A stretch of 64,000 nucleotides of DNA from the NCBI RefSeq assembly GCF_056746865.1, contig NZ_CM163382.1, one strand, 5' to 3'. The notes under the pieces were generated by a model. That model had not been told where the DNA came from. It saw only the letters and a list, made by a program, of their open reading frames with translations, and did not search any database. A program made the position numbers and the translations under genes. This document shows, in pieces, positions 1 to 24,613 of the stretch (the stretch's first letter is position 1; the number at the start of each line of letters is the position of its first letter).

Positions 1-2927
1 GATTTTATGAATCTGAACGACGCAATTTTCTCGGAACATTATTCAGTGAAGGTGGTTTACCTTTCCGGCTACTCAAAGAATCAGACAGTCGCTTTCTGGC
101 TGTTTTCTCCAGGATCCTTGGACAATATGAGCAAGCAAAGCAGTCAGGTTTTTCTGCCCTTTCGCTGGCAAGAGCTGTCATAGAAAAATCAGCGCTGCCA
201 ACTGTTTTTAGCGAAGATACCTCTGTAGAACTTATCAGTCATATGGCTGATAACCTCAATTCCTTAGTACTTACTCACAACCTAATAAATCACAAAGAAC
301 CAGTACAACAGCTTGAGAAGGTTCACCCTACCTGGCGAAGCGAGTTTCCAATACCGTTAGATGATGAAACAGGAACGCATTTTTTGAATGGACTGCTATG
401 CGCAGCCTCTGTAGAGGCTAAGCCTCGACTACAAAAAAATAAGAGTACGCGTTGCCAATTCTATTGGTCAGAAAAGCATCCAGATGAGCTTAGGGTGATA
501 GTATCTCTTCCGGACGAAGTTTCCTTTCCTGTAACAAGCGAGCCGTCAACTACGCGCTTTGAACTTGCCATTTGTGAAGATGGTGAGGAAGTCTCTGGCC
601 TTGGGCCAGCCTATGCTTCTCTGGAAAACAGACAGGCAACAGTTCGATTACGTAAAAGCGAAGTGAGATTTGGCAGGCAAAATCCATCGGCAGGTTTGTC
701 GTTAGTGGCTCGTGCTGGAGGGATGATTGTTGGGAGCATTAAACTTGATGACAGTGAAATTGCCATTGGTGAGGTGCCGTTAACCTTCATCGTTGATGCA
801 GATCAATGGCTGTTACAGGGACAGGCTTCTTGCAGTGTGCGAAGCAGCGATGTTCTGATTGTGCTCCCTCGGGATAATAGCAATGTTGCTGGTTTTGATG
901 GCCAATCGAGGGCAGTAAACGTATTAGGACTAAAAGCACTACCTGTGAAGGGATGTCAGGACGTTACAGTTACAGCAAATGAAACTTATCGGATTCGCAC
1001 CGGAAGAGAACAAATCAGCATCGGAAGGTTTGCTCTAAATGGAAAGCGTGCAAGCTGGGTTTGTCATCCAGATGAAACATTTATTGGTGTACCAAAAGTC
1101 ATTTCTACACTACCGGATATTCAAAGCATTGATGTAACGCGTTACCTGAGCGGAATTTCAATTGAGCAATGTCATATACAAGAGATGCTGGGGGCTCAAT
1201 ATCTTTCTATCCGTAATAGTAAGAATGAAACGCTCTTGCGTCGCAAAATCGGTATTTTGCCTGCTGATTTCAGTATTGAGATAAAAGGTGGAATACACGC
1301 AAATGAAGGCACTATCGTAATCACCACACAGCATCCTTGTGTAGCAAAACTTAAAGATAAAACATTGGAGGCTACACGTAAGCGTACTGAGGGGCGAACA
1401 GAGATACAACTCAAAGCGGAAGGGGTACCTCCGGCATTTATTACATTACAAGTTCTGCCTAATTTGGCGGCTGACCCCATCGATATTGAGTTACCTTTTC
1501 CCGCTAAAGGCTGTCTCGCTCTTGATGTAAACGGACGTCCTCTGGATAAAAACATTACGCTGCATGATCTGCTGGGTTCCAGAGCGTTTCTGTTCTCCAG
1601 AAATGGCGAGCCGACAAGATATACATTGCAGTTGCATTTGCGCTCCGTTAGTGGATTACAGGCATGGCACGAATGGTGTTATACGGCGTTGAGCGATCGT
1701 CCTGTTGAATTGAATCTCTATAGTCTGCGCGAACATATTGAGAACCTGATTTCACTTGAGGCAGGTATTGACCAGGTTGTTGAGATGCGTATTACGGGGG
1801 CGGGTGTGGTCATGGCCTGGCAAATTCGTCGCTATAAATACAGTCTGCGCTATGATTATGAAAAAGAACTATTACTCAGCCAGTCAGTGAACCATCGTGC
1901 TGGACAGATTCCTTCCCCCGTTATCATGCTGTTAAGTGAACCCGAGAGGAAATCCATCCCCTTAGCATCAAGAATGAGCGAGGGAGTGCCTGTCGGTGAA
2001 TATGAGTTGAGCTCAATCGTTAACAAAAATGGACCGTGGTTGGTTGTCCCTAAACCGGGTGAAGAGATGGCTTTTCGTCCCTGCTTCATTCGTGGCGAAT
2101 CTTCGTTACCGGTAGAAGAAAGCAACATCCGCTCATTGCAGAAAGCGACCCAGCTTTTTAATCCACAGGCAGAAGTTAATACCATCACACTGGTTCTCGG
2201 ACAGATGGCTAACGATCCTGCCCATTCCGGCTGGCAATTTATGCGTAGCCTGTACGATCAATTTGGTTATTTACCACTGGCAACCTTTGAAGTATGGCGT
2301 GCACTGGTGCAGCATCCGCAGGCATTGGCAATGTCGCTCTTCAAATTTGAAATGTCAGCAGAGTACCTGAGTCGTATTGAGAATGAGTTCCCTATTCTAT
2401 GGGAGTTTTTCCCCATCTTTGAGATCAAAGCGGCATCTGAGCGTTTCAAATTGTTCCTGAGCCAAAAAGGTGCACCGGAGGAAACCCAGAAATTACTGGT
2501 TACTAATATGTTTCAACGGCTGGGGCTCGTGTTCCCGACATATGCCGATGAAATTGAGAAATGGTTAAGTAACGGACATCTCCCCCCGTCTATTCCTGAG
2601 TCTTTTGTCCACGTGTGGTATCAGGAGCTTTTACGTGAGCATAGTGAAGCTCAATGGCCAGAGTACGGCAGCAAGCGGCTGCATAGCTGGATGGCATCAC
2701 AAAAAAATCCAGTGATTGGTATTAATCCTGACGCAAATCACCGCTATTCCGTGGCCTTGTTACCCGTCTTCGCTGCAGCTGTGGCAAGCGGAAATGCTTC
2801 TTTTGAATCTGTATTTGACCGTAAACCCGGTGCCGTATTTTTCCTGAGGCAAGTCAGGGATTTCGATTCCCGCTGGTTTAAGGCCATCTTCCAGTGCAGC
2901 CTGTTGCGTTATGTTGCTAAAAAATAA
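1..2927 (+). CDS. Large protein of unknown function, 5-prime partial (continues upstream of the window); first gene of candidate two-gene defense operon
   Basis: Reading frame is open from position 3 through the ORF-track ATG at 243 with no stop, and the upstream translation (FYESERRNFLGTLFSEGGLPFRLL...) looks protein-like; stop at 2925-2927; no catalytic motif I can name. Confidence 0.7.
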   Translation, partial: FYESERRNFLGTLFSEGGLPFRLLKESDSRFLAVFSRILGQYEQAKQSGFSALSLARAVIEKSALPTVFSEDTSVELISHMADNLNSLVLTHNLINHKEPVQQLEKVHPTWRSEFPIPLDDETGTHFLNGLLCAASVEAKPRLQKNKSTRCQFYWSEKHPDELRVIVSLPDEVSFPVTSEPSTTRFELAICEDGEEVSGLGPAYASLENRQATVRLRKSEVRFGRQNPSAGLSLVARAGGMIVGSIKLDDSEIAIGEVPLTFIVDADQWLLQGQASCSVRSSDVLIVLPRDNSNVAGFDGQSRAVNVLGLKALPVKGCQDVTVTANETYRIRTGREQISIGRFALNGKRASWVCHPDETFIGVPKVISTLPDIQSIDVTRYLSGISIEQCHIQEMLGAQYLSIRNSKNETLLRRKIGILPADFSIEIKGGIHANEGTIVITTQHPCVAKLKDKTLEATRKRTEGRTEIQLKAEGVPPAFITLQVLPNLAADPIDIELPFPAKGCLALDVNGRPLDKNITLHDLLGSRAFLFSRNGEPTRYTLQLHLRSVSGLQAWHEWCYTALSDRPVELNLYSLREHIENLISLEAGIDQVVEMRITGAGVVMAWQIRRYKYSLRYDYEKELLLSQSVNHRAGQIPSPVIMLLSEPERKSIPLASRMSEGVPVGEYELSSIVNKNGPWLVVPKPGEEMAFRPCFIRGESSLPVEESNIRSLQKATQLFNPQAEVNTITLVLGQMANDPAHSGWQFMRSLYDQFGYLPLATFEVWRALVQHPQALAMSLFKFEMSAEYLSRIENEFPILWEFFPIFEIKAASERFKLFLSQKGAPEETQKLLVTNMFQRLGLVFPTYADEIEKWLSNGHLPPSIPESFVHVWYQELLREHSEAQWPEYGSKRLHSWMASQKNPVIGINPDANHRYSVALLPVFAAAVASGNASFESVFDRKPGAVFFLRQVRDFDSRWFKAIFQCSLLRYVAKK

Positions 2928-2939
2928 AAAGGAATAAGG

Positions 2940-5900
2940 ATGACTACACGCTATTTTTCGTCACTTATTGAACAATCGTTGTCTCGTTCAACTGAAGCAA
3001 CGCTCAGTATCATGGGCGTTACCAACCCGCAGCTGCGTGAACATCTCGCGCAACAAATGGGGGCTGATTGTGGGAAACCGGGCTCATTCCTTGCTTCTCC
3101 GGTATTCCAGCAAATGTTTGGCTGGAAGGAGTCAAACCACACGATGCGCAGCCTGACGGAAGGCAACGCATTGTTGAGCAAAGCAGTGGTTGATTCACTG
3201 GATGATCAGAATAATGGCCGGTACCGGTTTGGTGCTGACTGGAGGCCTTTTACGCACCAGTTAGCCAGTTGGAAAGCTTTGCTGGAAAAGAAACATTCAG
3301 TGGTGGTAACCAGTGGTACGGGTTCAGGTAAAACGGAATGTTTTATGGTACCGGTGCTGGAAGATCTTTACCGGGAACTGCATGAAAATGGCAACAATCC
3401 GTTGGTCGGTGTCCGAGCCCTTTTTCTCTATCCATTGAACGCCCTGATTAATTCACAGCGCGAGCGTCTGGATGCCTGGACGCGTGGTTTTGGTACAGGG
3501 ATCCGCTACTGCCTTTACAACGGCAACACCGAAAACCTACACGCTTCGGTAAAAAGCGAACAGGCAAAAAGGCCGAATGAGGTGCTCTCGCGCGAAAAAA
3601 TGCGTGAAGAACCTGCGCCGATTCTGGTGACCAACGGCACGATGCTGGAATATATGATGGTTCGCCAGGTCGACGCCCCGATTATCCAGCAATCTAAAGC
3701 ACAAAAATCACTACGCTGGATTGTACTGGATGAAGCGCATACCTATGTAGGGTCGCAGGCCGCTGAACTGGCGCTCCAGCTGCGTCGTGTGATGACCGCG
3801 TTTGGCGTGACACCAGATGACGTGCGCTTTGTCGCGACCTCTGCGACCATTGCCGGCAGCGACGCTGAAAAGCAGCTGAAAAAATTTCTCTCTGAATTAT
3901 CCGGTATCCCGCAGGAGCGCATCGATGTTCTGGACGGAAGTCGGGTGATTCCTGAACTGGAACCATCCAAAAACGTTTCTGTTCCGTTAGACGAGATAGA
4001 GCAAATACCTGATCTGGATCTAAGAGATAAAAATGATAATAAAATTAAAGGGATAAGTCCTGAGCGCTTTTATGCGCTTACGCATTCCCCCGAAGCGCGT
4101 TACATACGTGAGATGTTGGTCAAACAGCCCAATCCGATGAAGCTGGATGAGATAACAGAGCGGTTACACGTGCTGACAAAACAGCATTACAGCCAGCAGG
4201 AAGTACTGCGTTGGATCGATGTCTGTTCAGGGACTCAACCTAATGCAAAGGATCCCGCATTTCTTAAAGTCAGGGCGCATATCTTCCAGCGTAATACCCA
4301 GGGAATATGGGCTTGTGTTGATAAAGATTGCAGATTAAAGCACGGTACACCGCTCGACAAAGGCTGGCCCTTTGGCTATGTGTATGTGAACCAGCGACAA
4401 AATTGTGACTGTGGAAGCCCTGTATACGAAGTTGCATTCTGTAATGATTGTAATGAGCCTCATCTTCTGGCACGGGACAAAAAGGGCAAACTAGTCCAGT
4501 GGGAAAATAAAGGTGGCGATGAATTCTCTTTGCAGGATGAAGTACCTGTTGAACATGACGCTACAGAAGAAAAAGTCGAAAAAGAGAACAGTTTTCAGCC
4601 TCCGTTGATTATTGCCGCAGGAGAGACCAGCGAGGCAGGTTATACCCTACAACGCCTCGACCGTCAGACGCGCCGTATTGGCGTTATTAACAATGACAGC
4701 ATTCCGCTGATTATTAATGATATTGAACAGGTTTGTAGTGCCAGTGGCTGTGGCTACAGAGGCATGAGTGGGAAACAGCCCTTCCGGCGTGCACTATTAG
4801 GTGGGCCATTTTACGTTACTAATATCGTGCCCACCGTTCTAGAGTATTGTCAGGACTTTACCAGTGATGAAGGCAAAGAGGGCGTCGGACCAGATTCGTT
4901 GCCAGGACGAGGTCGTCGACTCATCACCTTTACAGACAGTCGACAAGGGACAGCCCGAATGGCGGTGCGTATGCAGCAAGAAGCAGAACGCAGTCGCTTA
5001 CGCGGAAGCGTAGTCGAAATTCTCAGCTGGCATCAAAGGACGCAAACGTCTACAGCGCCGAATGCCAATGCCGATCTGGAAAAATTAGCGGCCAGGGCGA
5101 AGCAAGCCCGTGAGCAGGCAGAAGAATATCGAAGCTGGGGAATGCCAGACCAGGCGAAATTGTCACAAGCACAGGCTGAACAGCTTGAACAGGCTTATCA
5201 GGCTGCAACCGGTGGGAAAGCTGCGACTATCCTGGTATCCCGAACCTGGACGGAGATGGTTAACGAGCTTAAAGAGAGAGCCGATATCCGCGGGCCGGTT
5301 CTGCAATATAACCATTATCTTAAGCCTGAAGTGTTTAATGAAAACGGCGGCCCCCTTAAGCTTTCTGAAATGTTGTTGTTCCGGGAATTCATGCGTCGCC
5401 CTAAACGGACTAACAGCCTGGAAACACAGGGGCTGGTTCAGGTTGGTTACCAGGGGCTGGAGAAAATACATAAGAGCCCCTTGCACTGGCAGGAAAAAGG
5501 ATTAACGCTGGATGACTGGCGCGATTTTCTCAAGGTTACGTTGGATCATTACGTTCGCGAGAGCAACTTCACACAGCTGGATGATGAGCTGAAAAACTGG
5601 ATTGGTAGCCGTTTTTCATCAAAATTCGTCCGTAACCCGGAATCAAAAGATCCTGAAGATAATCAGAACAGACGCTGGCCTCAAATTCGTAATGGCAACG
5701 TATCCCATCGTTTAGCGAAGTTGCTGATGCTGGGGGCTGGATTCAAAACCGTCAATGCGGCAACTATTGATATTATCAATACATGGCTGAAAGAAGCATG
5801 GGCCCAACTTACCGGACCGCTTGCAGTACTGAAACCCGATGGCAACCGTTTTTATTTACCGAAAGAGCATATGACTTTTTCTTTAATCACGGATGCCTGG

Positions 5901-11927: not shown

Positions 11928-12269
11928 TTACGCGACTTTCTGTTTACCGGCAATCACTCCAATAAACGCCTGCACCTGCTTTTGTTTACGCGCCGACAGT
12001 TTGCACACCTGGCGTAGCGACTGCATCAGTTCGCTCTCCTCGGCGGCGGGTGGTTGGGCGGTGAGGACAATACAGCCTTCCATCACTTTGACATCTACCG
12101 CCGTGCCAGTGGCAAAACCGGCGGCTTCCAGCCACTGACCTTTCAGGGTGATGGCGGGAATACGGCTGTAATCCGGGTAGCGACTCGCATAACCGACGGT
12201 GACATGACGGTTATTTGCCGGGGAGACTTCTGCTTCGAACGGTTGTGCAATAGAATGCGTGTCAGTCAT
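11928..12269 (-). CDS. symE: SymE, SOS-induced type I toxin (AbrB-fold RNA endonuclease-like)
   Basis: Translation [34 protein letters not shown].. (113 aa) inside the 132-aa track ORF. Confidence 0.85.
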
Positions 12270-12340
12270 AACTGCTATTCTCCAGGAATAGTGATTGTGA
12301 TTAGCGATGCGGGTGTGTTGGCGCACATCCGCACCGCGCT
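12255..12340 (+). ncRNA. symR: SymR antisense sRNA (antitoxin of symE), approximate position
   Basis: Established knowledge: SymR is encoded antisense to the symE 5-prime UTR and start codon; ends not determinable from sequence alone. Confidence 0.4.
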
Positions 12341-12496: not shown

Positions 12497-13891
12497 TCAG
12501 GATTTTTTACGTGAGGCTTTTTTACCCCCGCTAGCTGCGCGTTCAGCTTTGATTTTTTCCAGCAACGCGGCGGCGCTGTTTTCTCCGCTGATCAAATCCG
12601 GGTTTTCGGCCCGCCACTGGGCGGTAAGTTCACCACGGAACGCTTTTGCCAGGATGGATTGCGTCAGGTTGTTGACGCGGGCTAAGGCGTTGTTGACCTG
12701 TTTTTCTATGGTGTCGGCGTAGGCGAAGAGTTGCTCGACGCGGCGAACGATTTCGGCTTGTTCTTTTACTGGAGGTAATAAAACAACTTGGGATTTGATA
12801 TCTTTTCCTGAAATACCTTTTTGACCAGAAGTTGTTTTCACGCAGTTCATCATTGCATTTCGTGCTGAGGGGGATGAAAAAAATATTTCGATATATTCTG
12901 GTAAAGCATCTTTGGTTAATCGAGCTCGAATAAGTTTATCAGGATATAGCAAATTTTGATGTTGTAATTTTTTCAATAACCCACAAACACCAACAAATTC
13001 TAAACTTCCGTTATAGCGAGTAAATAAAAGATCTCCATCTTGTAATTTGTGGCGGTTTAGTTCACTTTCTGAACATTCTAGAAACCGAATATCGTTTTGA
13101 TCTACATGGCCAGCACGTACAGAACTAATGCGTAGTATTGGATGACCAACACCACTTTCATTTGGCTTTGATGAAAGACCATTACGTAATTCAGTTAAGA
13201 TAGATTCAAAATTTAACTTCTTAAATACAGAATGTTGCGGCTCAAAATTACGCCATTTTTCTGTCAATTTTCCATTAACTGCGCCCCCCAATACCGCTTG
13301 ACGAAAACGTTTCAGGATTTGTGGGATTTGCTCAAAACGTGCTTTGGTGCTGTCTACCTGCGCCAGCAGCGTATCGAGTTTTTCAGCGATGATTTTTTGT
13401 TCGGCAAGTGGTGGGATTGGTATATTTATCAAATCAAAGCTTGCCGGCTTAATATTATTAATATTTGCACCAGCAGAAAGTGATGAAATTTTGTTTCGAT
13501 AAAGAGAAGATTTTGTGAAATGAGCAATAAAACCAGAAAATATAAGTTTTTCAGGACGTAATACACCGCAAAATGCGCCGAAACTACATTCAAATGGTAG
13601 ATGCTGATGTGCGGATTTACCAACTACGGATTTGCTCCCTGATGACATTGCAATAACAATATCTTCAGGAGATATTTTTTGATTTTCTTTAACAAGATTT
13701 TTAGGAACAAAAACCAAGTCCGTAGTATCAAACTTGCCATTCTGAATATTGTTCGCACGGATAAGAGGCAAATAATCATCTTTTAGATAATTTATTGCCT
13801 GCTCTTTTTTATACGTTACTCCTCGGATTAGAGTTGTGACCGTAGATACTGGGGCGATAACCCACCCCTCCGGCAATTTCCCCGCACTCAT
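12497..13891 (-). CDS. hsdS: HsdS, type I restriction-modification specificity subunit (EcoKI family)
   Basis: 464-aa translation MSAGKLPEGWVIAPVSTVTTLIRG..; AT-rich target-recognition regions; stop overlaps hsdM. Confidence 0.9.
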   Translation of the reverse strand: MSAGKLPEGWVIAPVSTVTTLIRGVTYKKEQAINYLKDDYLPLIRANNIQNGKFDTTDLVFVPKNLVKENQKISPEDIVIAMSSGSKSVVGKSAHQHLPFECSFGAFCGVLRPEKLIFSGFIAHFTKSSLYRNKISSLSAGANINNIKPASFDLINIPIPPLAEQKIIAEKLDTLLAQVDSTKARFEQIPQILKRFRQAVLGGAVNGKLTEKWRNFEPQHSVFKKLNFESILTELRNGLSSKPNESGVGHPILRISSVRAGHVDQNDIRFLECSESELNRHKLQDGDLLFTRYNGSLEFVGVCGLLKKLQHQNLLYPDKLIRARLTKDALPEYIEIFFSSPSARNAMMNCVKTTSGQKGISGKDIKSQVVLLPPVKEQAEIVRRVEQLFAYADTIEKQVNNALARVNNLTQSILAKAFRGELTAQWRAENPDLISGENSAAALLEKIKAERAASGGKKASRKKS

Positions 13892-15477
13892 TCCTTCACC
13901 CCACCAAACGCTTCTTCCAGCAACTGACGCTGCAAATCGGCCTCATCGCTCGCCCCCAGTTCACGCATCAGCGCATCCAGTTCAGACAGCGCCTGTACCA
14001 GTTCGCCCATCGCTTCTGCCGCTAATACATCCGGCTCCGGCAGGCTGTCGGCATCAATACTGTCTTTATCTTTCAGCCAGGAGATATCCAGCGAATCGGA
14101 TTTTGCGGTGCGGATCCACTCACGGCTGAACTTGCGCCAGCGGCTGGTAGCAAGATGCTGGTCGGTGTTTTTGTTCTCTTCGCTGTCGGCAACTTCCGTC
14201 TCTTCGGCGTTAAAACTCCATTCACCTTCAGTGCGCGGGCTTAAACCGTGCGGGTCTTCGCCATACACGCGCTCAAACGGCTGCAAATGCTCGTCGGTAA
14301 ACGGTGTGCGCTTGCCGAAACTCGGCATATTGGTACGCAGGTCATACACCCACACGTCGTCGGTGCAGTTCTTATCCTGATGCGGGTTCGCCACTGTGCC
14401 TTTGGTAAAGAACAGCACGTTGGTCTTCACGCCCTGCGCGTAAAAAATACCGGTCGGCAGACGCAGAATGGTGTGCAGATGACACTTATCCATCAGGTCA
14501 CGACGGATGTCGGTGCCTTTGCCGCCTTCAAACAACACGTTATCTGGCACCACCACCGCCGCACGACCGCCGGGATGCAGCGTTTCGATAATATGCTGCA
14601 TAAAGCACAGCTGTTTGTTGCTGGTCGGGTGAACAAAGGTGCGGGTAATGTTGGTGCCTGCGGCGCTGCCAAACGGCGGGTTAGTGGCGACAATATGCGC
14701 CTTCGGCAGGTTTTCACCGTCGCTGCCCAGGGTGTTGCCCAGACGGATTGCGCCGCCGTGGTCGAGGTTGCCTTCAATATCGTGCAGCAGGCAGTTCATC
14801 AGTGCCAGACGACGGGTGCCGGGCACCAGTTCGAGGCCGATAAACGCGCGGTGGATCTGGAAATCCTGCGTGTCGCCATCAAGGTCGTCCAGATCATTGG
14901 TTTGCGACTTAACATAGCGGTCGGCTTCAATCAAAAAGCCCGCCGTACCTGCCGCCGGGTCCTGCACCACTTCACGCGGCTGCGGTTTCAGCAGATGAAT
15001 AATGGTTTTAATCAGCGGACGCGGGGTGAAGTACTGGCCTGCACCAGACTTGGTTTCATTCGCGTTCTTCTGCAACAGCCCTTCGTACATATCGCCGAAG
15101 TCATCGCGCGACTTACCGTGCGCGCCGTTGTACCAGTCCAGCGAATCCATATTGCTGACCAGTGCGGTTATTTGTTTCGGCTCGGTGATGGTGGTACTAA
15201 CATTATGAAAAACTGCCTGTACCAGCTTTTTGTCATCTTCGCCTAAATGCACGAGCATTTTTCGGTAGAACTGCAACTGCTCCTGGCCGATGCGGGATTT
15301 CAGGTCATCCCAGCGGTAACCTTCCGGCAGGTATTCCGCTTCCTGACCGGTCTCTTTACACATTTTCAAAAACAGCAGCGAGGCGAGTTCATTGACGTAG
15401 TTTTGATAGGAAACGCCGCCATCGCGCAGGTTGTCGCACAGCTTCCACAGCTTCGCGACCAGATCGTTATTGTTCAT
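13888..15477 (-). CDS. hsdM: HsdM, type I R-M N6-adenine DNA methyltransferase
   Basis: 529-aa translation with NPPF catalytic motif (..HIVATNPPFGSAAG..) and AdoMet-binding region; 4-nt overlap with hsdS. Confidence 0.92.
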   Translation of the reverse strand: MNNNDLVAKLWKLCDNLRDGGVSYQNYVNELASLLFLKMCKETGQEAEYLPEGYRWDDLKSRIGQEQLQFYRKMLVHLGEDDKKLVQAVFHNVSTTITEPKQITALVSNMDSLDWYNGAHGKSRDDFGDMYEGLLQKNANETKSGAGQYFTPRPLIKTIIHLLKPQPREVVQDPAAGTAGFLIEADRYVKSQTNDLDDLDGDTQDFQIHRAFIGLELVPGTRRLALMNCLLHDIEGNLDHGGAIRLGNTLGSDGENLPKAHIVATNPPFGSAAGTNITRTFVHPTSNKQLCFMQHIIETLHPGGRAAVVVPDNVLFEGGKGTDIRRDLMDKCHLHTILRLPTGIFYAQGVKTNVLFFTKGTVANPHQDKNCTDDVWVYDLRTNMPSFGKRTPFTDEHLQPFERVYGEDPHGLSPRTEGEWSFNAEETEVADSEENKNTDQHLATSRWRKFSREWIRTAKSDSLDISWLKDKDSIDADSLPEPDVLAAEAMGELVQALSELDALMRELGASDEADLQRQLLEEAFGGVKE

Positions 15478-15567
15478 TGTGAGTTCCGTAAATTAAGCAG
15501 CGGCCCAAATTCATCGAGCCGCAGAAGAAGAAATTGCCGAGGGTAATATACACAAAATCATTCAGGT

Positions 15568-15662
15568 TGCATCAAGGCGGCAAGTGAGTGAATCCCCGGG
15601 AGCGTACAGAAGTACGTGACCGGGGTGAACGAGCGCAGCCAACGCAGAGGCAGCCTGAAGGA
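15568..15662. repeat. ERIC (IRU)-like intergenic repeat between hsdM and hsdR
   Basis: Contains AAGTGAGTGAATCCCCGGGAGCGTACAGAAGTACGTGACCGGGGTGAACGAGCG, close to the ERIC core GTGAATCCCCAGGAGCTTACAT..GGGGTGAGCG. Confidence 0.65.
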
Positions 15663-15677
15663 TGAAGTGTATACGTG

Positions 15678-18600
15678 TCAGGCCAGCTCGTCCCAGATAT
15701 AATCGCTGAATTTGCCCAGCAGGGTATCGAGATTATCGTCAAAGGTTCTTTGCAGCATCGCCTTCCCGCCGCGACGGTGGAAGTTGCCGGTTTTGAAGAC
15801 ATCGTCGTCGAGCACCACTTTCTCTTTCAGCGCCTGCGCTAAACGATCGAGCCAGCTTAATTGCTCGCTGCTCCAGTCGTTTTCGCCCTTAATGCGCGTC
15901 AGCGCGTGATCGACACGTTCCTCAAACGGTTTCAGCGCATCGCCCACCGCAGCGCGGCGAATATGACCAATCAGCCGGGCGGCGATATCTTCATTGCGCG
16001 TCTCTTTCCATGCTTTGCGCAGGGAAGATTCCTCAAAGTGCTGGCGGTCAAACCACTCCTGTAGCTCGACCAGCCCTTTACGGGTGAGATCGCGCGGGCG
16101 ATTAATAACTGCCTGCAATGCCGGTTGCGCGTTCGGGGAACGTTGCACCAGCGAGTCAAAGGCTTCGAGGAAATCCTGCGGCGTGTCGTAATCACCGTAC
16201 AGCGATTTTACACTCACCACTTCATCGTCGATATCGAGGAAGATCGGCGCATCATTCAGGTTGTTGATGTCCGTTTTCAGCTTTTCCAGACGGGCGATAA
16301 AGCCAGGCAGTTTGTTAAAGACTTCGGCGCTCCAGTGCGGCCCTTTTTCCCGCAGGCGCGAGGCGAAGCCGTTAAAGCCCACCCCCGCCGCGTCCTGGCA
16401 TAGCTCATCCAGACGACGCACCTGTTTATCTATCGTTTCGCTGCGGTCACGGTTAAACGTGGCCAGGCCGATGATGCGCTGGAGCTTCGCCACCAGTTGT
16501 TCATGGCTGTGCTCGGCAAAACTGCGGCCATCCGCTTCGGTGATTTTATAGGTTTCTGAATCGGTAATTTCGTTGACCAGCGTTTGCAGCTCCACCTTAG
16601 GACGCACCACCACCGGACGCATGGTGTCGACGCTCTCCAGCGTGCTGTATATATCGACGCAGTCGAAAATCTTAAAGCTGGTTTTATTCACGTCCGGGCA
16701 CAAGCGCGTGGCGCGGCCTTTCATCTGCTCGTACAGAATACGGCTGCGTACTTTACGCAGGAACACGATGTTACAGATCGACGGAATATCGACGCCGGTC
16801 GTCAGCAGGTCGACGGTTACCACAATATTGGGCAGCCGCTCTTTATTGAAGCGGGTGATCATGGTCTGCACTTTGCGCGCGTCTTTATCGGCATCACCGG
16901 TGATCTTGATTATCGCGTCGTGCTCCAGTTGCGGATACTTTTTCTTGAACGCGGTACGCAACTCTTCCACCACCATATCGGCATGGGCATTGGTGACGCA
17001 GAAGACCAGCGTTTTTTGCGACCCGGTCGGGTCAAGGTAGTTGGTGAGTTCGTTACAGACGGCGCGGTTAAACGCCGGGATCACCAGGCCACGGTTAAAG
17101 TCGGCGACCTCAAAATCCTGATCGTCTTCCAGGGTGTCGTTGATTACTTCCCCCTGCGGGCTGATGCGCTCTACCTGTTCGCCTTTGGAGAGATAAACAC
17201 CCTCCTGTGCGTTGCGGGTGGTGATCTGAATTGGTGGATCCTGGTCGATCAGAAAACCGTCGATAACCGCGGTACGGTAGGTATAACGGTAAACCGGCTC
17301 GCCGAAAATCTGCACCGTATGCAACGCCGGGGTGGCGGTGAGGGCGATTTTTATCGCATCGAAGTGATCGAGAATGCGACGGTAGGCAGAGACATAATCC
17401 AGCTGGCTGCGGAACTGTAGTTCGCCTTCGGTCTGCTCTTTATCGAGAATATAGCCGCGATGCGCTTCATCGACGACGATACAGTCGTAACGGGCCACCG
17501 GCATCGGTTCATCTGATTGCAGGGTGCGTTTCACCAGCGACTGTACGGTGGCAACGTGAATTTTGGTGCTGTCTTCCGGGAATTTATCCGTCAGCCCTTT
17601 AATGTCGAAAATGCTGTTGAAGGTGTCGCCGTTAATACGCGTATCTTCAAACGCCCCCAGCGCCTGCTCGCCAAGAGAACGGCGATCCACAAGGAAGAGA
17701 ATGCGTTTAAAACGCTGGGACTGGATCAGGCGGAACATCATGGCAATTGCGGTGCGGGTTTTACCGGTACCGGTCGCCATCGCCAGCAGGATCTCTTGTT
17801 GACCCTTGACGATTGCCTTTTCCACCGCGCGGACGGCATCTTCCTGATAATAACGCAGGCCCAGCTCGCTCATGCCGGGATTATCGGCAAACCACTGATT
17901 CTGTTTTTGCGGTTCGCTGCCGAGCATTTCCAGCAGCTCTTCCGGGCGATGCCACTCGGGTAAGGCTTTCGACATATTGCGGGTATCACGCACGTCGCGA
18001 TACCAGATGCCACTTTTAGTCTTCATTGCTGCGCGGTATTCGCGCCCGTTGGTGGAGTAGCAGAAGGGGATTTTAAACCGTTGTTGGCCGCTGGAGTCCT
18101 GCCAGCTAGTTTCATACTCCGGCACCGCTTCATGCACTTCATCCGGTGAGTAGTGCTCAAGCAAGGTTTCCCGCAGGAAGCCATTATCGAAGCATTTACT
18201 GTAGCGATACGACTCATTGAGCTTGCCGGGAACGTCGATATTTTTACGTTTCGCCTCTACCACCGCGATGGGTTTGAGGCCGACAAACAGCACATAATCC
18301 GCAAAGCCCTGTTTACCCGTTTCATCTTTCCCGGTCGGCCATTCGGCAATGGCTTTATTGACGCCGGGTTCCGGGCGCGCGCCTTTGGAGAAGCGCAGGG
18401 TTTTGCTATCGGCCTGCCAGCCTGCTTTACGCAGTTGCGCATCAATCAGGAAGCGGCTCTCTTCTTCGCTAAGGTTGAGTGTGCGCTTGATGGCCTGATC
18501 GGTAATTTCTTTGTGGTAAGCCTTACGTTCCTGTTCAGTCTGTTTGGCCAGTTCCGCGTTCTTCTCGGCGAGCTGTGCTTCCAGCGCCGCAAGGCGAGCC

Positions 18601-19190
18601 TGGGTTTGCGCTTCTGTTTCCTGCTGTTTGCCTTCCAGAATAGCGATATAGCCGTTCAGGGCAACCAGCTTCTGCTGTTGCGCTTCGACTTCTGCCTGAG
18701 TCTGCGCTTTTTCTCGCACCTGCTGTTCAAGCTGTTGTTTTAGCGTCAGCACTTCCTGGTGATAGAGGTTCTCGCCACGTTCTGGTAACACAAACACCGG
18801 CACCGGGAAGTCATAATCTTTAGTGACCAGACGGTAGTACCAGACAGCCAGGCGGAACCCGAGTCGCAGGCACATCTGGGCATCGTCGAGATCGTTGTGA
18901 TATTCGTGCACCGCCTGGTTACCAATGCGGCGTAATTTGTGAAATACAGAGAGAATGTTGTCATCAACGAAGGCGATTTTGCCGAGTTCGCGCAGGAGAT
19001 CGTGTTGATTCTCACAAGGGGGGATGTTGAGTAACAGACCAAGATGTTTCGCTGTGGCTTCGCCAAACATACGCATTTTAATTAGCGTCGTGTTGGGATC
19101 ATCCGGGTAGTTATTTTCCGCCGCACAGGCGATGGCATAAGTGAAGTCGTTGACGCCCTTCAGGAATTCGAAGTTGGATTTATTCATCAT
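15678..19190 (-). CDS. hsdR: HsdR, type I R-M restriction endonuclease/translocase subunit
   Basis: 1170-aa translation with DEAD-like helicase motifs (AMATGTGKT, VVDEAH) and N-terminal nuclease region. Confidence 0.92.
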   Translation of the reverse strand: MMNKSNFEFLKGVNDFTYAIACAAENNYPDDPNTTLIKMRMFGEATAKHLGLLLNIPPCENQHDLLRELGKIAFVDDNILSVFHKLRRIGNQAVHEYHNDLDDAQMCLRLGFRLAVWYYRLVTKDYDFPVPVFVLPERGENLYHQEVLTLKQQLEQQVREKAQTQAEVEAQQQKLVALNGYIAILEGKQQETEAQTQARLAALEAQLAEKNAELAKQTEQERKAYHKEITDQAIKRTLNLSEEESRFLIDAQLRKAGWQADSKTLRFSKGARPEPGVNKAIAEWPTGKDETGKQGFADYVLFVGLKPIAVVEAKRKNIDVPGKLNESYRYSKCFDNGFLRETLLEHYSPDEVHEAVPEYETSWQDSSGQQRFKIPFCYSTNGREYRAAMKTKSGIWYRDVRDTRNMSKALPEWHRPEELLEMLGSEPQKQNQWFADNPGMSELGLRYYQEDAVRAVEKAIVKGQQEILLAMATGTGKTRTAIAMMFRLIQSQRFKRILFLVDRRSLGEQALGAFEDTRINGDTFNSIFDIKGLTDKFPEDSTKIHVATVQSLVKRTLQSDEPMPVARYDCIVVDEAHRGYILDKEQTEGELQFRSQLDYVSAYRRILDHFDAIKIALTATPALHTVQIFGEPVYRYTYRTAVIDGFLIDQDPPIQITTRNAQEGVYLSKGEQVERISPQGEVINDTLEDDQDFEVADFNRGLVIPAFNRAVCNELTNYLDPTGSQKTLVFCVTNAHADMVVEELRTAFKKKYPQLEHDAIIKITGDADKDARKVQTMITRFNKERLPNIVVTVDLLTTGVDIPSICNIVFLRKVRSRILYEQMKGRATRLCPDVNKTSFKIFDCVDIYSTLESVDTMRPVVVRPKVELQTLVNEITDSETYKITEADGRSFAEHSHEQLVAKLQRIIGLATFNRDRSETIDKQVRRLDELCQDAAGVGFNGFASRLREKGPHWSAEVFNKLPGFIARLEKLKTDINNLNDAPIFLDIDDEVVSVKSLYGDYDTPQDFLEAFDSLVQRSPNAQPALQAVINRPRDLTRKGLVELQEWFDRQHFEESSLRKAWKETRNEDIAARLIGHIRRAAVGDALKPFEERVDHALTRIKGENDWSSEQLSWLDRLAQALKEKVVLDDDVFKTGNFHRRGGKAMLQRTFDDNLDTLLGKFSDYIWDELA

Positions 19191-19377
19191 TGTTATTAAT
19201 CCATTGCTGTGTGGGCCTGTCCAAATATTTAAGGCCCATAACGTCTTATCTTAGCTTTCTGTACCTTTCCGGACAATGACCGGAGTCACAGCAACTGACT
19301 CATTTCTAACGTGTTCGTCTATTTTGGTAGTGTTATAGTAGCCGAAAAACATCTACCTGATTCTGCAAGGATGTACT

Positions 19378-20292
19378 ATGACGGTTCCTACCTATGACAA
19401 ATTTATTGAACCTGTTCTGCGTTATCTGGCGACAAAACCGGAAGGTGCAGCCGCGCGTGATGTTCATGAGGCTGCCGCGGATGCATTAGGACTGGATGAC
19501 AGCCAGCGAGCGAAAGTCATTACCAGCGGACAACTTGTTTATAAAAATCGTGCAGGCTGGGCACATGACCGTTTAAAACGTGCCGGGTTGTCGCAAAGTT
19601 TGTCGCGTGGCAAATGGTGCCTGACTCCTGCGGGTTTTGACTGGGTTGCGTCTCATCCCCAGCCAATGACGGAGCAGGAGACGAACCATCTGGCCTTCGA
19701 TTTTGTGAATGTCAAACTTAAGTCACGGCCGGATGCCGTCGATTTAGATCCGAAAGCCGACTCTCCCGATCATGAAGAACTAGCAAAGAGCAGCCCGGAC
19801 GATCGGTTAGATCAGGCGCTAAAAGAGCTTCGTGATGCGGTGGCTGATGAGGTTCTGGAAAACTTATTGCAGGTTTCTCCTTCGCGCTTTGAAGTCATTG
19901 TTCTGGATGTTTTGCATCGCCTGGGGTATGGCGGCCACCGTGATGATTTGCAGCGTGTTGGCGGTACTGGAGATGGTGGCATCGATGGTGTGATATCGCT
20001 TGATAAACTTGGCCTGGAGAAAGTTTATGTTCAGGCAAAACGTTGGCAGAACACTGTAGGCAGGCCAGAATTACAGGCATTTTACGGCGCACTGGCTGGG
20101 CAAAAGGCGAAACGTGGGGTGTTTATTACCACTTCTGGATTTACGTCTCAGGCGCGTGACTTTGCTCAATCCGTCGAGGGTATGGTGTTGGTTGATGGGG
20201 AACGCCTGGTGCACTTAATGATCGAAAACGAAGTAGGGGTTTCTTCACGTTTGTTGAAGGTGCCGAAACTGGATATGGACTATTTTGAGTGA
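19378..20292 (+). CDS. mrr: Mrr, modified-DNA (methyladenine/methylcytosine) restriction endonuclease (type IV)
   Basis: 304-aa translation MTVPTYDKFIEPVLRYLATKPEGAAARDV..; divergent from hsdR. Confidence 0.9.
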   Translation: MTVPTYDKFIEPVLRYLATKPEGAAARDVHEAAADALGLDDSQRAKVITSGQLVYKNRAGWAHDRLKRAGLSQSLSRGKWCLTPAGFDWVASHPQPMTEQETNHLAFDFVNVKLKSRPDAVDLDPKADSPDHEELAKSSPDDRLDQALKELRDAVADEVLENLLQVSPSRFEVIVLDVLHRLGYGGHRDDLQRVGGTGDGGIDGVISLDKLGLEKVYVQAKRWQNTVGRPELQAFYGALAGQKAKRGVFITTSGFTSQARDFAQSVEGMVLVDGERLVHLMIENEVGVSSRLLKVPKLDMDYFE

Positions 20293-20295
20293 AAT

Positions 20296-20335
20296 ATCAG
20301 GCCGGATGCGGCTGCGCCTTATCCGGCCCATAACC
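20296..20335. repeat. REP element between convergent mrr and yjiA
   Basis: gccggatgcggctgcgccttatccggcc palindromic REP consensus. Confidence 0.7.
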
Positions 20336-20337
20336 CC

Positions 20338-21294
20338 TTACTTCCTCAACCCCGCAAACGCCGCCCGAATCTCATCCTCCGGCAACTGAATCCCGATAAA
20401 CACCATCGTGCTATGCGGTTTTTCATCGCCCCACGGTCTGTCCCAGTCGGCGCTGTAGAGGCGCTGGACGCCCTGGAACAGCAGGCGGTTAGCTTCGCCG
20501 TCAATCCACAGCATCCCTTTGTAACGCAGCAGTTTATCCGCCGATTCCAGCAGCAGGTTTTCCATCACGCGGGAAACTTCGCTGATATCTACCGGGTAAT
20601 CCAGTTCCACCACAATCGACGAAATATCGTTTTGTTTATCCGCGATAAAGTGGAAACGCGGTTTGGTGCTGACGACGTTCTCTTCCAGCATAAAACCGTT
20701 GGTGTTGAACAGCAGGCCCAGGTCGATGTCGCCGTGGGTAACGGTGTAGACCGGTGCACGGGCGTTGATGCGCGCCAGGCGTTCGCGCAGTTTTTCTGCT
20801 TCGCCTGCGACGTCGGTTTTAGTCAGCAGAATACGGTCGGCGTAGCCAACCTGTGACTGGGCGATGGTGAACTGGTTCATCTGCTCATCGGCATGTACCG
20901 CATCCACCAGCGCAATCACGCCGTCCAGCAGGTAACGCTGGCATAAAATCTCATGGGAGAAAAAGGTCTGAATAATCGGGCCGGGATCGGCCATGCCGGT
21001 GCATTCAATGACCAGACGGTCGAACTGAATATTGCCCTTGTCGAGATTATCCAGCAGGTCGAGTAGCGCGTCCTCCAGCTCGTTGGAGCGCGAACAGCAG
21101 ATGCAGCCGTTGGTCAGCGTTTTGATCTGCGTGGCGCGGTCACCAATCAGTTGATCATCAACGGAGACTTCGCCGAATTCGTTTTCAATCACGGCAATCT
21201 TGTAGCCGTGTTGTTCGTTAAGAATATGGCGCAGCAGGGTGGTTTTGCCCGCGCCTAAAAAACCGGTGAGTAGGGTAACTGCAATCGGGTTCAT
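20338..21294 (-). CDS. yjiA: YjiA, COG0523-family P-loop GTPase (metal chaperone-like)
   Basis: Translation MNPIAVTLLTGFLGAGKTTLLRHILNEQHGYKIAVIENEFGE.. (318 aa from the internal Met of the 346-aa track ORF). Confidence 0.85.
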   Translation of the reverse strand: MNPIAVTLLTGFLGAGKTTLLRHILNEQHGYKIAVIENEFGEVSVDDQLIGDRATQIKTLTNGCICCSRSNELEDALLDLLDNLDKGNIQFDRLVIECTGMADPGPIIQTFFSHEILCQRYLLDGVIALVDAVHADEQMNQFTIAQSQVGYADRILLTKTDVAGEAEKLRERLARINARAPVYTVTHGDIDLGLLFNTNGFMLEENVVSTKPRFHFIADKQNDISSIVVELDYPVDISEVSRVMENLLLESADKLLRYKGMLWIDGEANRLLFQGVQRLYSADWDRPWGDEKPHSTMVFIGIQLPEDEIRAAFAGLRK

Positions 21295-21304
21295 GCTCTC
21301 TCCA

Positions 21305-21508
21305 TTAACAACAGCGCATACCGCCTTTACCATCGCCGCCGTAGCGCGCGTTCTGGCGTTCGCGGAAGAATTCTTCATAGCTCATGTACGGCTTGTCGGG
21401 ATGGTTGGTCTTCATATGCTCGACGTAGTTGTCGTAGTCTGGAATGCCAATCAACATCTTCGCCGCCTGGCCGAGATATTTTTTTGCCTGTCCTAAGTTA
21501 CCAAACAT
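21305..21508 (-). CDS. yjiX: YjiX, small conserved protein (67 aa) co-transcribed with yjiA
   Basis: 67-aa [51 protein letters not shown].. immediately upstream of yjiA. Confidence 0.8.
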
Positions 21509-21557
21509 AGTTCACTCTGATAAGAACAAAGCCCCGCCGAAGCGGGGCTAAACACGG

Positions 21558-23708
21558 TTAGTGGTGCGAAGAGATCTTCACGCCGCCTTCCGGGATTGGA
21601 ACGTACGGTGTTTCTTTGTCAGTACGTTTGTCGCTGTTACGCACCTTCAGCCAGGTTTTGAAACCGTAGAAGATGATGCTGTACACCACAATCAGGAACA
21701 GAATACTCAGGCCCGCGTTGGTGTAGTTGTTCACAACAATGTGGTTCATGTTGGCAATCTGCTGCGCCGTCAGGTCAGTACCGTTAGCAATCTTCTCTTT
21801 GTACTGGCTTGCCATGTAGAAGAAGCCTTCCATCTGTGGGTTGGTGCTGAACAGTTTCAGACCCAGTGCCCAGGTGGTGCAGATAAGCAGCCATACAGCC
21901 GGAACAACGGTAACCCAGATGTATTGGGTGCGCTTCATCTTAATCAGCACAACGGTGCCCAGTACCAGCGCCACGGCTGCCAGCATCTGGTTGGAGATAC
22001 CGAACAGCGGCCACAGGCTCTTAACGCCGCCCAGCGGATCGACCACGCCCTGATACAGCAGGTAGCCCCACAGACCCACACAGCCCGCAGTACCGATGAT
22101 ACCGGCAACCAGAGAGTCGGTTTTTTTCAGGAACGGGATGAAGTTACCCAGCAGGTCTTGCAGCATAAAGCGGCCAGAACGGGTACCCGCATCCAGCGCG
22201 GTCAGGATGAACAGGGCTTCGAACAGAATACCGAAGTGATACCAGAAGCCCATGTCAGCCATCGGCAGCACTTTGTGGAACACATGAGCGATACCTACCG
22301 CCAGCGTCGGCGCACCACCTGCACGGTTCAGGACAGAAGGCTCACCAATGTCTTTCGCGGTTTGCAGGATCTGCTCTGGCGAAATCACGAAGCCCCAGGA
22401 GCTGACGGTTGCCGCCGCGTGTGCGGTAACGTCTTTCAGCTGCGCCATGATGATCGGCGCGTTCTCGCCACCCATTTCATGCAGGTTAGGCATGGTGATG
22501 CCAAGGCCAGCAGGCGGGGTATTCATCGCGAAGTAAAGACCCGGTTCGATGATGGACGCAGCAACCAGCGCCATAATCGCCACGAAGGACTCCATCAGCA
22601 TTGCGCCGTAGCCAATGAAACGCGCGTCGGTTTCATTAGCCAGCAGTTTCGGCGTCGTACCGGAAGAGATCAGCGCGTGGAAGCCAGATACCGCACCACA
22701 GGCGATGGTGATGAACAGGAACGGGAACAGAGCGCCTTTCCACAGCGGGCCAGTACCGTCAATGTACTGGGTCATCGCAGGCATTTTCAGTTCCGGGTTC
22801 AGCACCACGATACCCAGCGCCAGGCCGACGATAACGCCGATTTTCAGGAAGGTTGCCAGATAGTCGCGCGGTGCGAGGATCAGCCACACCGGCAGCAGTG
22901 CGGAAACAAACGCATAGCCAATCAGCGCGAAGGTAATGGTGGTGTCTTTAAAGGTCAGTGCCGGACCCCAGTACGGATCGTGAGCAATCACGCCACCGAA
23001 GTAGATAGAGGCAACCAGCAGCACGATACCAATGACAGAGACTTCACCCACACGCCCCGGACGGATAAAGCGCATGTAGATACCCATAAACAGCGCAATC
23101 GGTACGGTTGAGCAAACGGTGAAAACACCCCACGGGCTTTCGGCCAGGGCTTTAACCACAATCAGCGCCAGGACGGCAAGGATGATGATCATGATTAAGA
23201 AACAGCCAAACAGCGCGATAGTCCCCGGTACTGGTCCCATCTCTTCTTTGATCATCTCACCGAGAGATGCGCCGTTACGGCGAGAGGAGATAAACAGCAC
23301 CATAAAGTCCTGTACCGCACCGGCCAGTACTACCCCCGCCAGCAGCCACAGCGTGCCAGGTAGGTAGCCCATCTGCGCGGCGAGAACCGGACCAACCAGC
23401 GGACCAGCACCGGCGATAGCGGCGAAGTGGTGACCAAACAACACGTAACGGTTGGTCGGAACGTAGTTCAGACCGTCGTTGTTAATAACCGCAGGCGTCG
23501 CGCGCGTGGGGTCGAGTTTCATCACCTTCTGGGCGATGTACAAACTGTAGTAGCGATACGCCACCAGATACACCGACACAGAGGCGACCACGATCCACAG
23601 GGCGCTGACGTGCTCCCCCCGACGTAATGCAACTACCGCGAGGCAGAATGCACCGATGATTCCGAGAATCACCCAGGGTATGTGCTTGAATAGTTTTTTC
23701 GTATCCAT
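21558..23708 (-). CDS. btsT: BtsT (YjiY), CstA-family pyruvate/H+ symporter
   Basis: 716-aa polytopic membrane protein starting MDTKKLFKHIPWVILGIIG.. Confidence 0.9.
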   Translation of the reverse strand: MDTKKLFKHIPWVILGIIGAFCLAVVALRRGEHVSALWIVVASVSVYLVAYRYYSLYIAQKVMKLDPTRATPAVINNDGLNYVPTNRYVLFGHHFAAIAGAGPLVGPVLAAQMGYLPGTLWLLAGVVLAGAVQDFMVLFISSRRNGASLGEMIKEEMGPVPGTIALFGCFLIMIIILAVLALIVVKALAESPWGVFTVCSTVPIALFMGIYMRFIRPGRVGEVSVIGIVLLVASIYFGGVIAHDPYWGPALTFKDTTITFALIGYAFVSALLPVWLILAPRDYLATFLKIGVIVGLALGIVVLNPELKMPAMTQYIDGTGPLWKGALFPFLFITIACGAVSGFHALISSGTTPKLLANETDARFIGYGAMLMESFVAIMALVAASIIEPGLYFAMNTPPAGLGITMPNLHEMGGENAPIIMAQLKDVTAHAAATVSSWGFVISPEQILQTAKDIGEPSVLNRAGGAPTLAVGIAHVFHKVLPMADMGFWYHFGILFEALFILTALDAGTRSGRFMLQDLLGNFIPFLKKTDSLVAGIIGTAGCVGLWGYLLYQGVVDPLGGVKSLWPLFGISNQMLAAVALVLGTVVLIKMKRTQYIWVTVVPAVWLLICTTWALGLKLFSTNPQMEGFFYMASQYKEKIANGTDLTAQQIANMNHIVVNNYTNAGLSILFLIVVYSIIFYGFKTWLKVRNSDKRTDKETPYVPIPEGGVKISSHH

Positions 23709-23743
23709 AGTAAAACCTGGCATTTTACTCGTCGTCTTTTGGC

Positions 23744-23830
23744 TTACAGGTGCGGCAGCTGCGTTCGTTCACCTCTGACACTTACTGTTGTAAGCTCCCG
23801 GGGATTCACTCACTTGCTGCCTTCCTGCAA
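23744..23830. repeat. ERIC (IRU)-like repeat in the btsT leader, inverted relative to the copy at 15568-15662
   Basis: GCTCCCGGGGATTCACTCACTTGC is the exact reverse complement of the core at 15574-15597; about 85 percent identity over ~80 bp. Confidence 0.65.
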
Positions 23831-23966
23831 ACCAAAATCCATAGAGTAATTTGTTAATCATAGGCCGAAGCCGTTCTAGGTTTGCGTTGCGTTTGAGGAG
23901 GTAAATTGACCGCTATCCTGCAGTGATGTTGCCAGAGATACGCGCGCGTAAAGTAAGGTAAATAAC

Positions 23967-24015
23967 TGAGTGGTTATTTTAGGGATGTAAGCGGTCAGGA
24001 ATGGCGGTGAGCGGT
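23967..24015 (-). promoter_or_regulatory. Putative BtsR (YehT) operator: three direct repeats ACC(G/A)CT(C/T)A spaced 12-13 bp, upstream of btsT
   Basis: On the btsT strand: ACCGCTCA (24015-24008), ACCGCTTA (23995-23988), ACCACTCA (23974-23967); matches the published YehT/BtsR half-site as I recall it. Confidence 0.5.
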
Positions 24016-24043
24016 TGGGCAAGAATTATTCATCGGGTGGATA

Positions 24044-24059
24044 TGTGATTGAGATCACA
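24044..24059. promoter_or_regulatory. Consensus CRP site TGTGA-N6-TCACA
   Basis: tgtgattgagatcaca, perfect palindromic CRP half-sites; lies upstream of btsT and just downstream of the hpaC terminator. Confidence 0.55.
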
Positions 24060-24065
24060 ATAAAA

Positions 24066-24096
24066 ATGCCCCTTCGACGAATGCGTGAAGGGGCTG
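24066..24096 (-). terminator. Rho-independent terminator after hpaC
   Basis: gccccttc..gaaggggc stem-loop directly 3-prime of the hpaC stop. Confidence 0.55.
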
Positions 24097-24100
24097 GAGC

Positions 24101-24613
24101 TTAAATCGCAGCTTCCATTTCCAGCATCACCGGATGGAAACGGCGTTTAAAGTAGATAAGTCCGTGACCTTCTGCACTGAGGATGATGTTTTTAATCTCC
24201 ACCAGATACACCAGATGTGTGCCAATTGCCTGCACATCGCGGATCTCACCTTCAAGACTGGCCAGCGAACCTTTTAGCACCGGCTGCGCCAGCGGACCTT
24301 TTTGCCAGCATGAGAGGCTAAAACGCTCTTCCATCGCCATGCCTGTCATGCCCGCGAAGTGGCGTGCCATCAGTTCCTGCTCATGGTTGAGGACGTTGAC
24401 GCACAACTTGCCGTTGCCCTGAAAAACCGGGTTCATCGCACTGTTGGCGTTAATGCACACCATCAGCGACGGTGGTGTATCCGTGACCGAGCAGACAGCC
24501 GTTGCCGTAATCCCGCATTGTCCGGTGTCGCCCTCGGTGGTGATAATATTTACCGCTGCCGACAGGCTGGCCATCGCGTCACGAAAGCGCAGGCGTTGTT
24601 CATCTAATTGCAT
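24101..24613 (-). CDS. hpaC: HpaC, NAD(P)H-flavin oxidoreductase component of 4-hydroxyphenylacetate 3-monooxygenase
   Basis: 170-aa translation; position immediately after hpaB; flavin reductase family. Confidence 0.85.
   Translation of the reverse strand: MQLDEQRLRFRDAMASLSAAVNIITTEGDTGQCGITATAVCSVTDTPPSLMVCINANSAMNPVFQGNGKLCVNVLNHEQELMARHFAGMTGMAMEERFSLSCWQKGPLAQPVLKGSLASLEGEIRDVQAIGTHLVYLVEIKNIILSAEGHGLIYFKRRFHPVMLEMEAAI

Follow-up and report, generated by a model that had tools for sequence, protein, structure and literature searches.

The inverted repeats that bracket hsdR, mrr, yjiA, yjiX and btsT in the window, the whole 64-kb stretch of DNA analysed here, are very probably two independent ERIC MITE insertions, each polymorphic among strains, which neither act together nor bring about inversion of the segment between them. 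ERIC elements are mobile but non-autonomous, measure 127 bp, form an imperfect palindrome and insert at TA dinucleotides in the transcribed intergenic spacers of Enterobacteriaceae; they have been on record since 1990-91. Copy 1 occupies about 15546-15672 in the hsdR-hsdM spacer; its consensus orientation reads on the minus strand, in the same sense as the hsdR and hsdM mRNA. Copy 2 is located in the 5' leader of btsT in the opposite orientation (plus strand), with an aligned span of 127 nt at about 23724-23850 and an indel-defined insert of 123 bp at 23726-23848.

Both repeats are full-length ERIC elements

The reference was Wilson and Sharp's consensus for E. coli ERIC (RU-1), 127 nt long, reprinted in Table 1a of Delihas 2007 (PMC2759123). 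Copy 1 aligns to it end to end with 85% identity (108/127), and copy 2, likewise end to end, with 73% (93/127), the conserved central inverted repeat included. Between the two copies, identity is only 69%. Because each is nearer to the consensus than to the other copy, they are independent members of the family and not a special pair. Judged on these alignments, the resemblance between them is family similarity, and they represent two separate ERIC insertions. The first-pass annotation had described an ERIC-like element of ~85 bp between hsdM and hsdR; its nature and position are as described, but the element is longer, 127 bp in full. Aligned length is 127 nt for both copies, and the corresponding indels against empty alleles measure 124 bp at the hsd site and 123 bp at the btsT site.

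Each copy is an imperfect palindrome, with self-complementarity at 78 of 130-132 positions (~60%). The ERIC1R primer matches at 19-20 of 22 positions and ERIC2 at 17-19 of 22. Both copies are intergenic, with either same-strand genes or a promoter region and the gene it serves on their two sides, and from its position each would be co-transcribed with the adjoining genes. A search with the 127-nt query shows the family to be widely dispersed. Of 5426 complete E. coli genomes, 5425 have it, and the median number of places in a genome is 13 (range 3-20). Strain 120899 has 15; over the regions compared, its sequence and that of the window are 100% identical. The two elements thus resemble the ERIC/IRU family as described in 1991 and by Wilson and Sharp in 2006 in their 127-bp length, full-length similarity to the consensus and hairpin-forming imperfect palindrome, in their operon or leader position between genes, in the TA at their termini and insertion sites, and in belonging to many dispersed copies that are present or absent from one E. 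coli strain to another. Every defining feature of the family that could be tested is found in both copies. There is no difference in kind, although the btsT copy, at 73% to the consensus, is more diverged than usual.

The kind of element is already known: the literature (PMC2229807, PMC10969869, PMC3184786) treats ERIC as a MITE that duplicates TA and whose effects have been linked to RNase E. Strain-to-strain presence and absence of ERIC in E. coli is documented as well; a 2024 MITE review (PMC10969869) cites Wilson and Sharp 2006 for 14 additional ERIC loci in non-K-12 E. coli. Rfam has no ERIC family. The whole 129-position model of its family RF02818 (V_AS5, a Vibrio antisense RNA) is matched by both copies, on opposite strands, yet at 44.9 and 28.2 bits these matches fall far short of the family's gathering score of 96. 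Most likely, RF02818 goes back to an ERIC-type repeat from Vibrio.

Each insertion is polymorphic among strains

At the btsT site, 123 bp (23726-23848) are cleanly missing from K-12, between conserved flanks. The insert is present in 2062 of 5383 complete E. coli genomes (~38%). About 3300 others, among them K-12, O157:H7, Nissle 1917 and CFT073, lack it and show an identical 123-bp gap. The type strain of E. albertii carries the insert at 98.4% identity, and Citrobacter werkmanii and C. youngae have none at this site. From this distribution, the btsT insertion arose within Escherichia.

The hsd site has an empty counterpart too. In strain 504239 the spacer measures 76 bp as against 200 bp, a clean 124-bp gap. 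The hsd copy is filled in 893 of 937 type IA hsd loci at a coverage of at least 80%; the other 44, which fall below that coverage, probably represent the same empty allele as in 504239. All four combinations of presence and absence are seen: both copies in the window, FDAARGOS_497 and BL21; the hsd copy alone in K-12 and UTI89; the btsT copy alone in many strains that lack this hsd type; and neither copy in 504239.

Comparison of empty and filled alleles gives the junctions. At the hsd site, the empty allele joins GATAC to CGTG and the filled allele reads ..ATATAC[..]GTATACGTG; at the btsT site, the empty CATG-TA-TTGA corresponds to ..TT-TA-[119 bp]-TA-ATTT when filled. Both are consistent with the TA target-site duplication described for ERIC (PMC2229807, PMC2759123), with limits that are uncertain by 1-2 nt, as the junction flanks are slightly diverged. 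A candidate case of gene conversion, in which the hsd copy of BHUCD02 seemed to have moved towards the btsT copy, was rejected; that assembly has no btsT copy and follows K-12 coordinates, and the signal is a probable artefact of reference-guided assembly.

Position of the two copies in their transcripts

The open reading frames and the annotation confirm that the pair brackets hsdR, mrr, yjiA, yjiX and btsT. On the minus strand are hsdS (12497-13891), hsdM (13888-15477) and hsdR (15678-19190), the latter two annotated as such in K-12 and in strain 120899. The gene mrr (19378-20292) is on the plus strand. By gene order, yjiA and yjiX lie between hsdR and btsT on the minus strand, and btsT itself is annotated at 21558-23708, also minus. 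The window is E. coli chromosome but not that of K-12, since an hpa cluster adjoins btsT.

Copy 1 sits in the region between the 3' end of hsdR and hsdM in a type IA (EcoKI-family) restriction locus. In the sense of the mRNA, the hsdR stop codon (15678-15680, minus strand) is 4 nt upstream of the end of copy 1, and the hsdM start codon (15475-15477, minus strand) is 68 nt downstream of it. Both copies had been placed in transcribed leaders, upstream of hsdR and of btsT. This is correct for the btsT copy only; the other lies downstream of hsdR and upstream of hsdM. Between copy 1 and the hsdM start there is also a G+C-rich hairpin with a 9-bp stem (15500-15522, minus strand), which is outside the ERIC and is kept in the allele without it. 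In a sigma-70 consensus scan, no minus-strand promoter was found in either spacer. Loenen et al. reportedly described, in 1987, a promoter belonging to hsdM itself.

Copy 2 lies between the operator/promoter region and the ribosome-binding site of btsT. The position of the btsT start codon (23706-23708, minus strand) comes from the annotation of strain 120899, whose sequence matches at 100% in this region, and the Shine-Dalgarno sequence AGG at ~23717-23719 (minus strand) is ~5 nt from the end of the insert. Upstream of copy 2, at 23967-23995 on the minus strand, is a direct repeat of the form ACCRCTYA-N13-ACCRCTYA, a putative BtsR (YehT) operator of the type reported by Kraxenberger et al. 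2012. It is the single perfect match to this motif in the window, where 0 are expected. Provided that the promoter abuts the operator as usual, copy 2 would be inside the btsT 5' UTR and add 123 nt to it. Copy 2 also lies downstream of a GGA motif in the leader, a candidate CsrA site. Our literature searches returned nothing relevant that ties ERIC to hsdR/hsdM or to yjiY/btsT, and a search on Pmod and Pres returned only the PvuII system.

Predicted hairpins and a possible regulatory role

RNA folding, proposed in the first-pass annotation as a check, bore out the expectation of hairpins. In the mRNA sense, copy 1 is predicted to fold with -46.3 kcal/mol (z -6.1 versus shuffled sequence) and copy 2 with -53.1 kcal/mol (z -6.4). 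At minimum free energy, each copy is predicted to form one long hairpin, with z between -3 and -8 depending on the strand. When folded within 256-261 nt of surrounding mRNA, each copy keeps its own hairpin, and the predicted in-context folds leave the flanks, the btsT Shine-Dalgarno sequence and the hairpin upstream of hsdM largely undisturbed. Because each ERIC would fold on itself and hold its flanks close together, the insertions may have been tolerated at these sites. We therefore picture both copies as passive MITE insertions, put up with as self-contained long hairpins.

Passive insertion would still be compatible with modest effects on the host transcripts, and effects of the hairpins on mRNA stability or translation are plausible from the predicted structures. 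The rule by which orientation determines RNase E exposure in Yersinia reportedly comes from De Gregorio et al. 2005. Copy 1 shares the geometry of those Yersinia elements: a stop codon is 4 nt away, and of its two arms it is the AU-rich one that comes 3' in the transcript. The effect on mRNA, however, was shown in Yersinia only, and copy 2, an insertion in a 5' leader, is outside that work. Yersinia ERICs are co-transcribed and shift the level of the upstream transcript according to orientation, by way of an RNase E site that is laid bare when ribosomes open the hairpin (PMC2229807, PMC10969869, PMC3184786). By analogy, a ribosome terminating on hsdR could open the copy 1 hairpin and expose an RNase E site, and the hsdR part of any read-through transcript would then be lowered, modestly, relative to hsdM-hsdS. 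At btsT, a stable hairpin just upstream of the Shine-Dalgarno sequence might alter translation or CsrA control, again modestly.

A stronger version of this idea is that selection has turned one copy or both into cis-regulatory RNA, so that the btsT hairpin tunes translation, CsrA control or half-life and the hsd copy uncouples HsdR from HsdM/S. We think this somewhat unlikely, although several observations speak for it. The hairpins are predicted to be stable and autonomous and lie at sensitive spots, just past the hsdR stop and just before the btsT Shine-Dalgarno sequence; in K-12, the Csr system controls the translation of yjiY/btsT (PMC5431176); orientation-dependent effects on mRNA are described for the Yersinia elements; and across the btsT copy the 2062 genomes that carry it, as well as E. 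albertii, retain 98-100% identity. That identity, however, is no higher than in the flanks, the E. albertii tract being 97% identical overall against 98.4% within the ERIC. Filled and empty alleles are both common and evidently viable, and the high frequency of the insert is equally well explained by linkage to the adjoining hpa haplotype.

The bracketed segment is found in a single orientation

An inverted-repeat search of 15000-24500 returned only one long pair, with arms at 15567-15671 and 23726-23830 that are 105 nt long, 75% complementary and separated by 8054 nt, in agreement with the earlier report of an inverted recurrence ~8.1 kb away in the btsT leader. The identical 24-bp core reported with it is likewise real: GCAAGTGAGTGAATCCCCGGGAGC at 15580-15603 (plus strand) is the reverse complement of 23794-23817, where the same core is read on the minus strand. 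By direct count, 79 of 105 arm positions are identical and the longest exact run is the 24-nt core. The pairwise alignment that had been suggested as a check thus finds similarity beyond the core, both in the arms and, at 69%, over the full copies. BLAST of the 64 kb found no third ERIC copy. By our own arithmetic, 15 copies in 5.1 Mb give ~0.34 pairs within 8 kb per genome, and ~29% of genomes would be expected to have at least one ERIC pair inside 8 kb. Because some 0.34 such pairs are expected per genome, the presence of two ERICs within 8 kb is not remarkable.

It had been suggested that the pair could recombine and flip the 8-kb hsdR-mrr-yjiA-yjiX-btsT segment into two isoforms. We now consider this very improbable, although the inverted homology is real (105 nt with a 24-nt exact block) and repeats in general have been discussed as engines of rearrangement (PMC3184786). 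We built the two recombinant junctions with the crossover in the 24-nt core, one joining hsdM through the ERIC to the 5' end of btsT (junction A) and the other joining the 3' end of hsdR through the ERIC to the btsT promoter region (junction B). At a query coverage of at least 80%, junction A was found in 0 of 5426 complete E. coli genomes and junction B also in 0 of 5426, and the best coverage, 54-55%, corresponds to one half of the query only. A search of related genomes for the inverted configuration had been suggested beforehand as a check of this proposal, and none of these 5426 has the inverted isoform. Roughly 150-300 of the 5426 have both copies, with both found in 3 of 11 genomes sampled evenly from 934 collinear ones, and at least ~148 genomes have the haplotype of the window at 99% identity or more. 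Among metagenome contigs, a gapped exact pattern with the same left flank matched the inverted junction 0 times and the normal junction 22 times, and in the one contig containing both copies the order is normal. As a fixed or majority isoform, the inversion is largely refuted, with the proviso that assemblies are blind to rare events in subpopulations.

Other considerations point the same way. RecBCD/RecA recombination needs a minimal processing segment of ~23-27 bp, a value reported by Shen and Huang in 1986. The 24 nt of exact identity sit right at that minimum, and their flanks are 25-30% diverged. According to the annotation, there is no recombinase gene in or beside the segment, the genes from symE to hpaR being restriction, GTPase, transporter and catabolic genes only. 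An inversion would moreover be expected to cut btsT off from its BtsR-box promoter. The arrangement resembles programmed invertible segments such as the Hin, Gin and Fim switches, shufflons and phase-variable hsdS in that inverted repeats enclose a set of genes, a type I restriction gene among them. Unlike those systems, it has no adjoining site-specific recombinase and no second orientation in any genome; its repeats are generic dispersed MITEs, and the restriction gene enclosed is hsdR rather than alternative hsdS halves. Neither of the features of a programmed invertible segment, that is, both orientations or a recombinase, is present.

That the inverted match is a chance or low-complexity artefact can be dismissed, since the 24-mer core at up to 3 mismatches occurs at exactly two places in the window, on opposite strands, against an expectation of 0.00 in 100 shuffles of the 64 kb, copy 1 and copy 2 match each other by BLAST with E = 1e-18, and both match the published consensus over its full length.

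Implications

The useful results of this analysis are negative or corrective: the inverted pair is no inversion switch for the restriction locus, and the placement of copy 1 has been mended. One practical consequence concerns the btsT leader. K-12, in which the work on pyruvate sensing by BtsS/BtsR-BtsT has been done and which serves as its model, is without the structured 123-bp insert found in over a third of E. coli strains, B/BL21 among them. Because K-12 lacks this insert, leader-dependent regulation measured there may not transfer to strains that have it. We offer, as an unlikely and tentative proposal, that the btsT-leader ERIC is a common natural cis-regulatory variant that changes BtsT translation, CsrA repression or mRNA half-life, and that the hsd copy likewise lowers HsdR relative to HsdM/S. 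If this were true, a large share of E. coli strains would control their pyruvate uptake in a different way.

The ERIC copies and an Rfam antisense RNA family

Both ERIC copies match RF02818, annotated in Rfam as 'V_AS5', a Vibrio antisense RNA. The hsd copy, in the spacer between hsdR and hsdM, is matched at 15546-15669 on the plus strand with 44.9 bits, and the btsT-leader copy at 23728-23846 on the minus strand with 28.2 bits. Each aligns to the entire model, positions 1-129, at a score below the gathering score of 96 bits. An ERIC-type repeat therefore appears to be the basis of this family.

Elements around the hsd copy

Upstream of hsdM, 23 nt from its start codon, is a G+C-rich hairpin (15500-15522, minus strand) whose stem has 9 bp. 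A weak T-rich tail follows it, and the hairpin is kept in the ERIC-less allele. It could be a terminator or attenuator for hsdR, or a leader structure of hsdM. Directly downstream of hsdS, and in the same arrangement in K-12, is the SymR antitoxin RNA (12264-12340, plus strand), which scores 95.3 bits with RF01809 and is antisense to the 5' end of symE.

In strain BHUCD02 (NZ_CM183444.1, excerpts L004 and L108), the core of the hsd ERIC carries seven substitutions typical of the btsT-type copy. This assembly is in K-12 coordinates, and the core is probably an artefact of reference-guided assembly, in which reads of an unplaced ERIC copy were mapped to the hsd site. Gene conversion is probably the poorer explanation, as the genome has no btsT ERIC.

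The btsT leader, the hpa cluster and E. albertii

The annotated btsT start is preceded, 15 nt upstream, by an in-frame ATG (23721-23723, minus strand), which is part of AAAATGCCAGG, a sequence at the border of the ERIC insert. Because K-12 has the same ATG, it was not made by the insertion. In Pseudocitrobacter faecalis, an ERIC copy split by ~70 bp of additional sequence lies directly downstream of btsT (4745-4938 of excerpt L038); this is a separate, independent insertion close to the gene.

The cluster of hpa (4-hydroxyphenylacetate) genes, from ~24000 to ~35300, adjoins the btsT-leader region (23724-24000), with its junction directly upstream of the BtsR box. Across E. coli, the cluster and the btsT-leader ERIC are almost fully linked (2062 versus 2065 genomes), agreeing in 19 of 19 sampled rows. 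They are distinct indels with ~150 bp between them, and E. albertii carries the ERIC but lacks hpa. In E. albertii NBRC 107761, btsT and its leader, ERIC included (2196-4642 of excerpt L028), are 97% identical to 24014-21567 of the window, while the neighbouring tsr region reaches just 85-88%. This difference in sequence identity suggests that btsT and its leader form a tract of recombination between E. albertii and E. coli.
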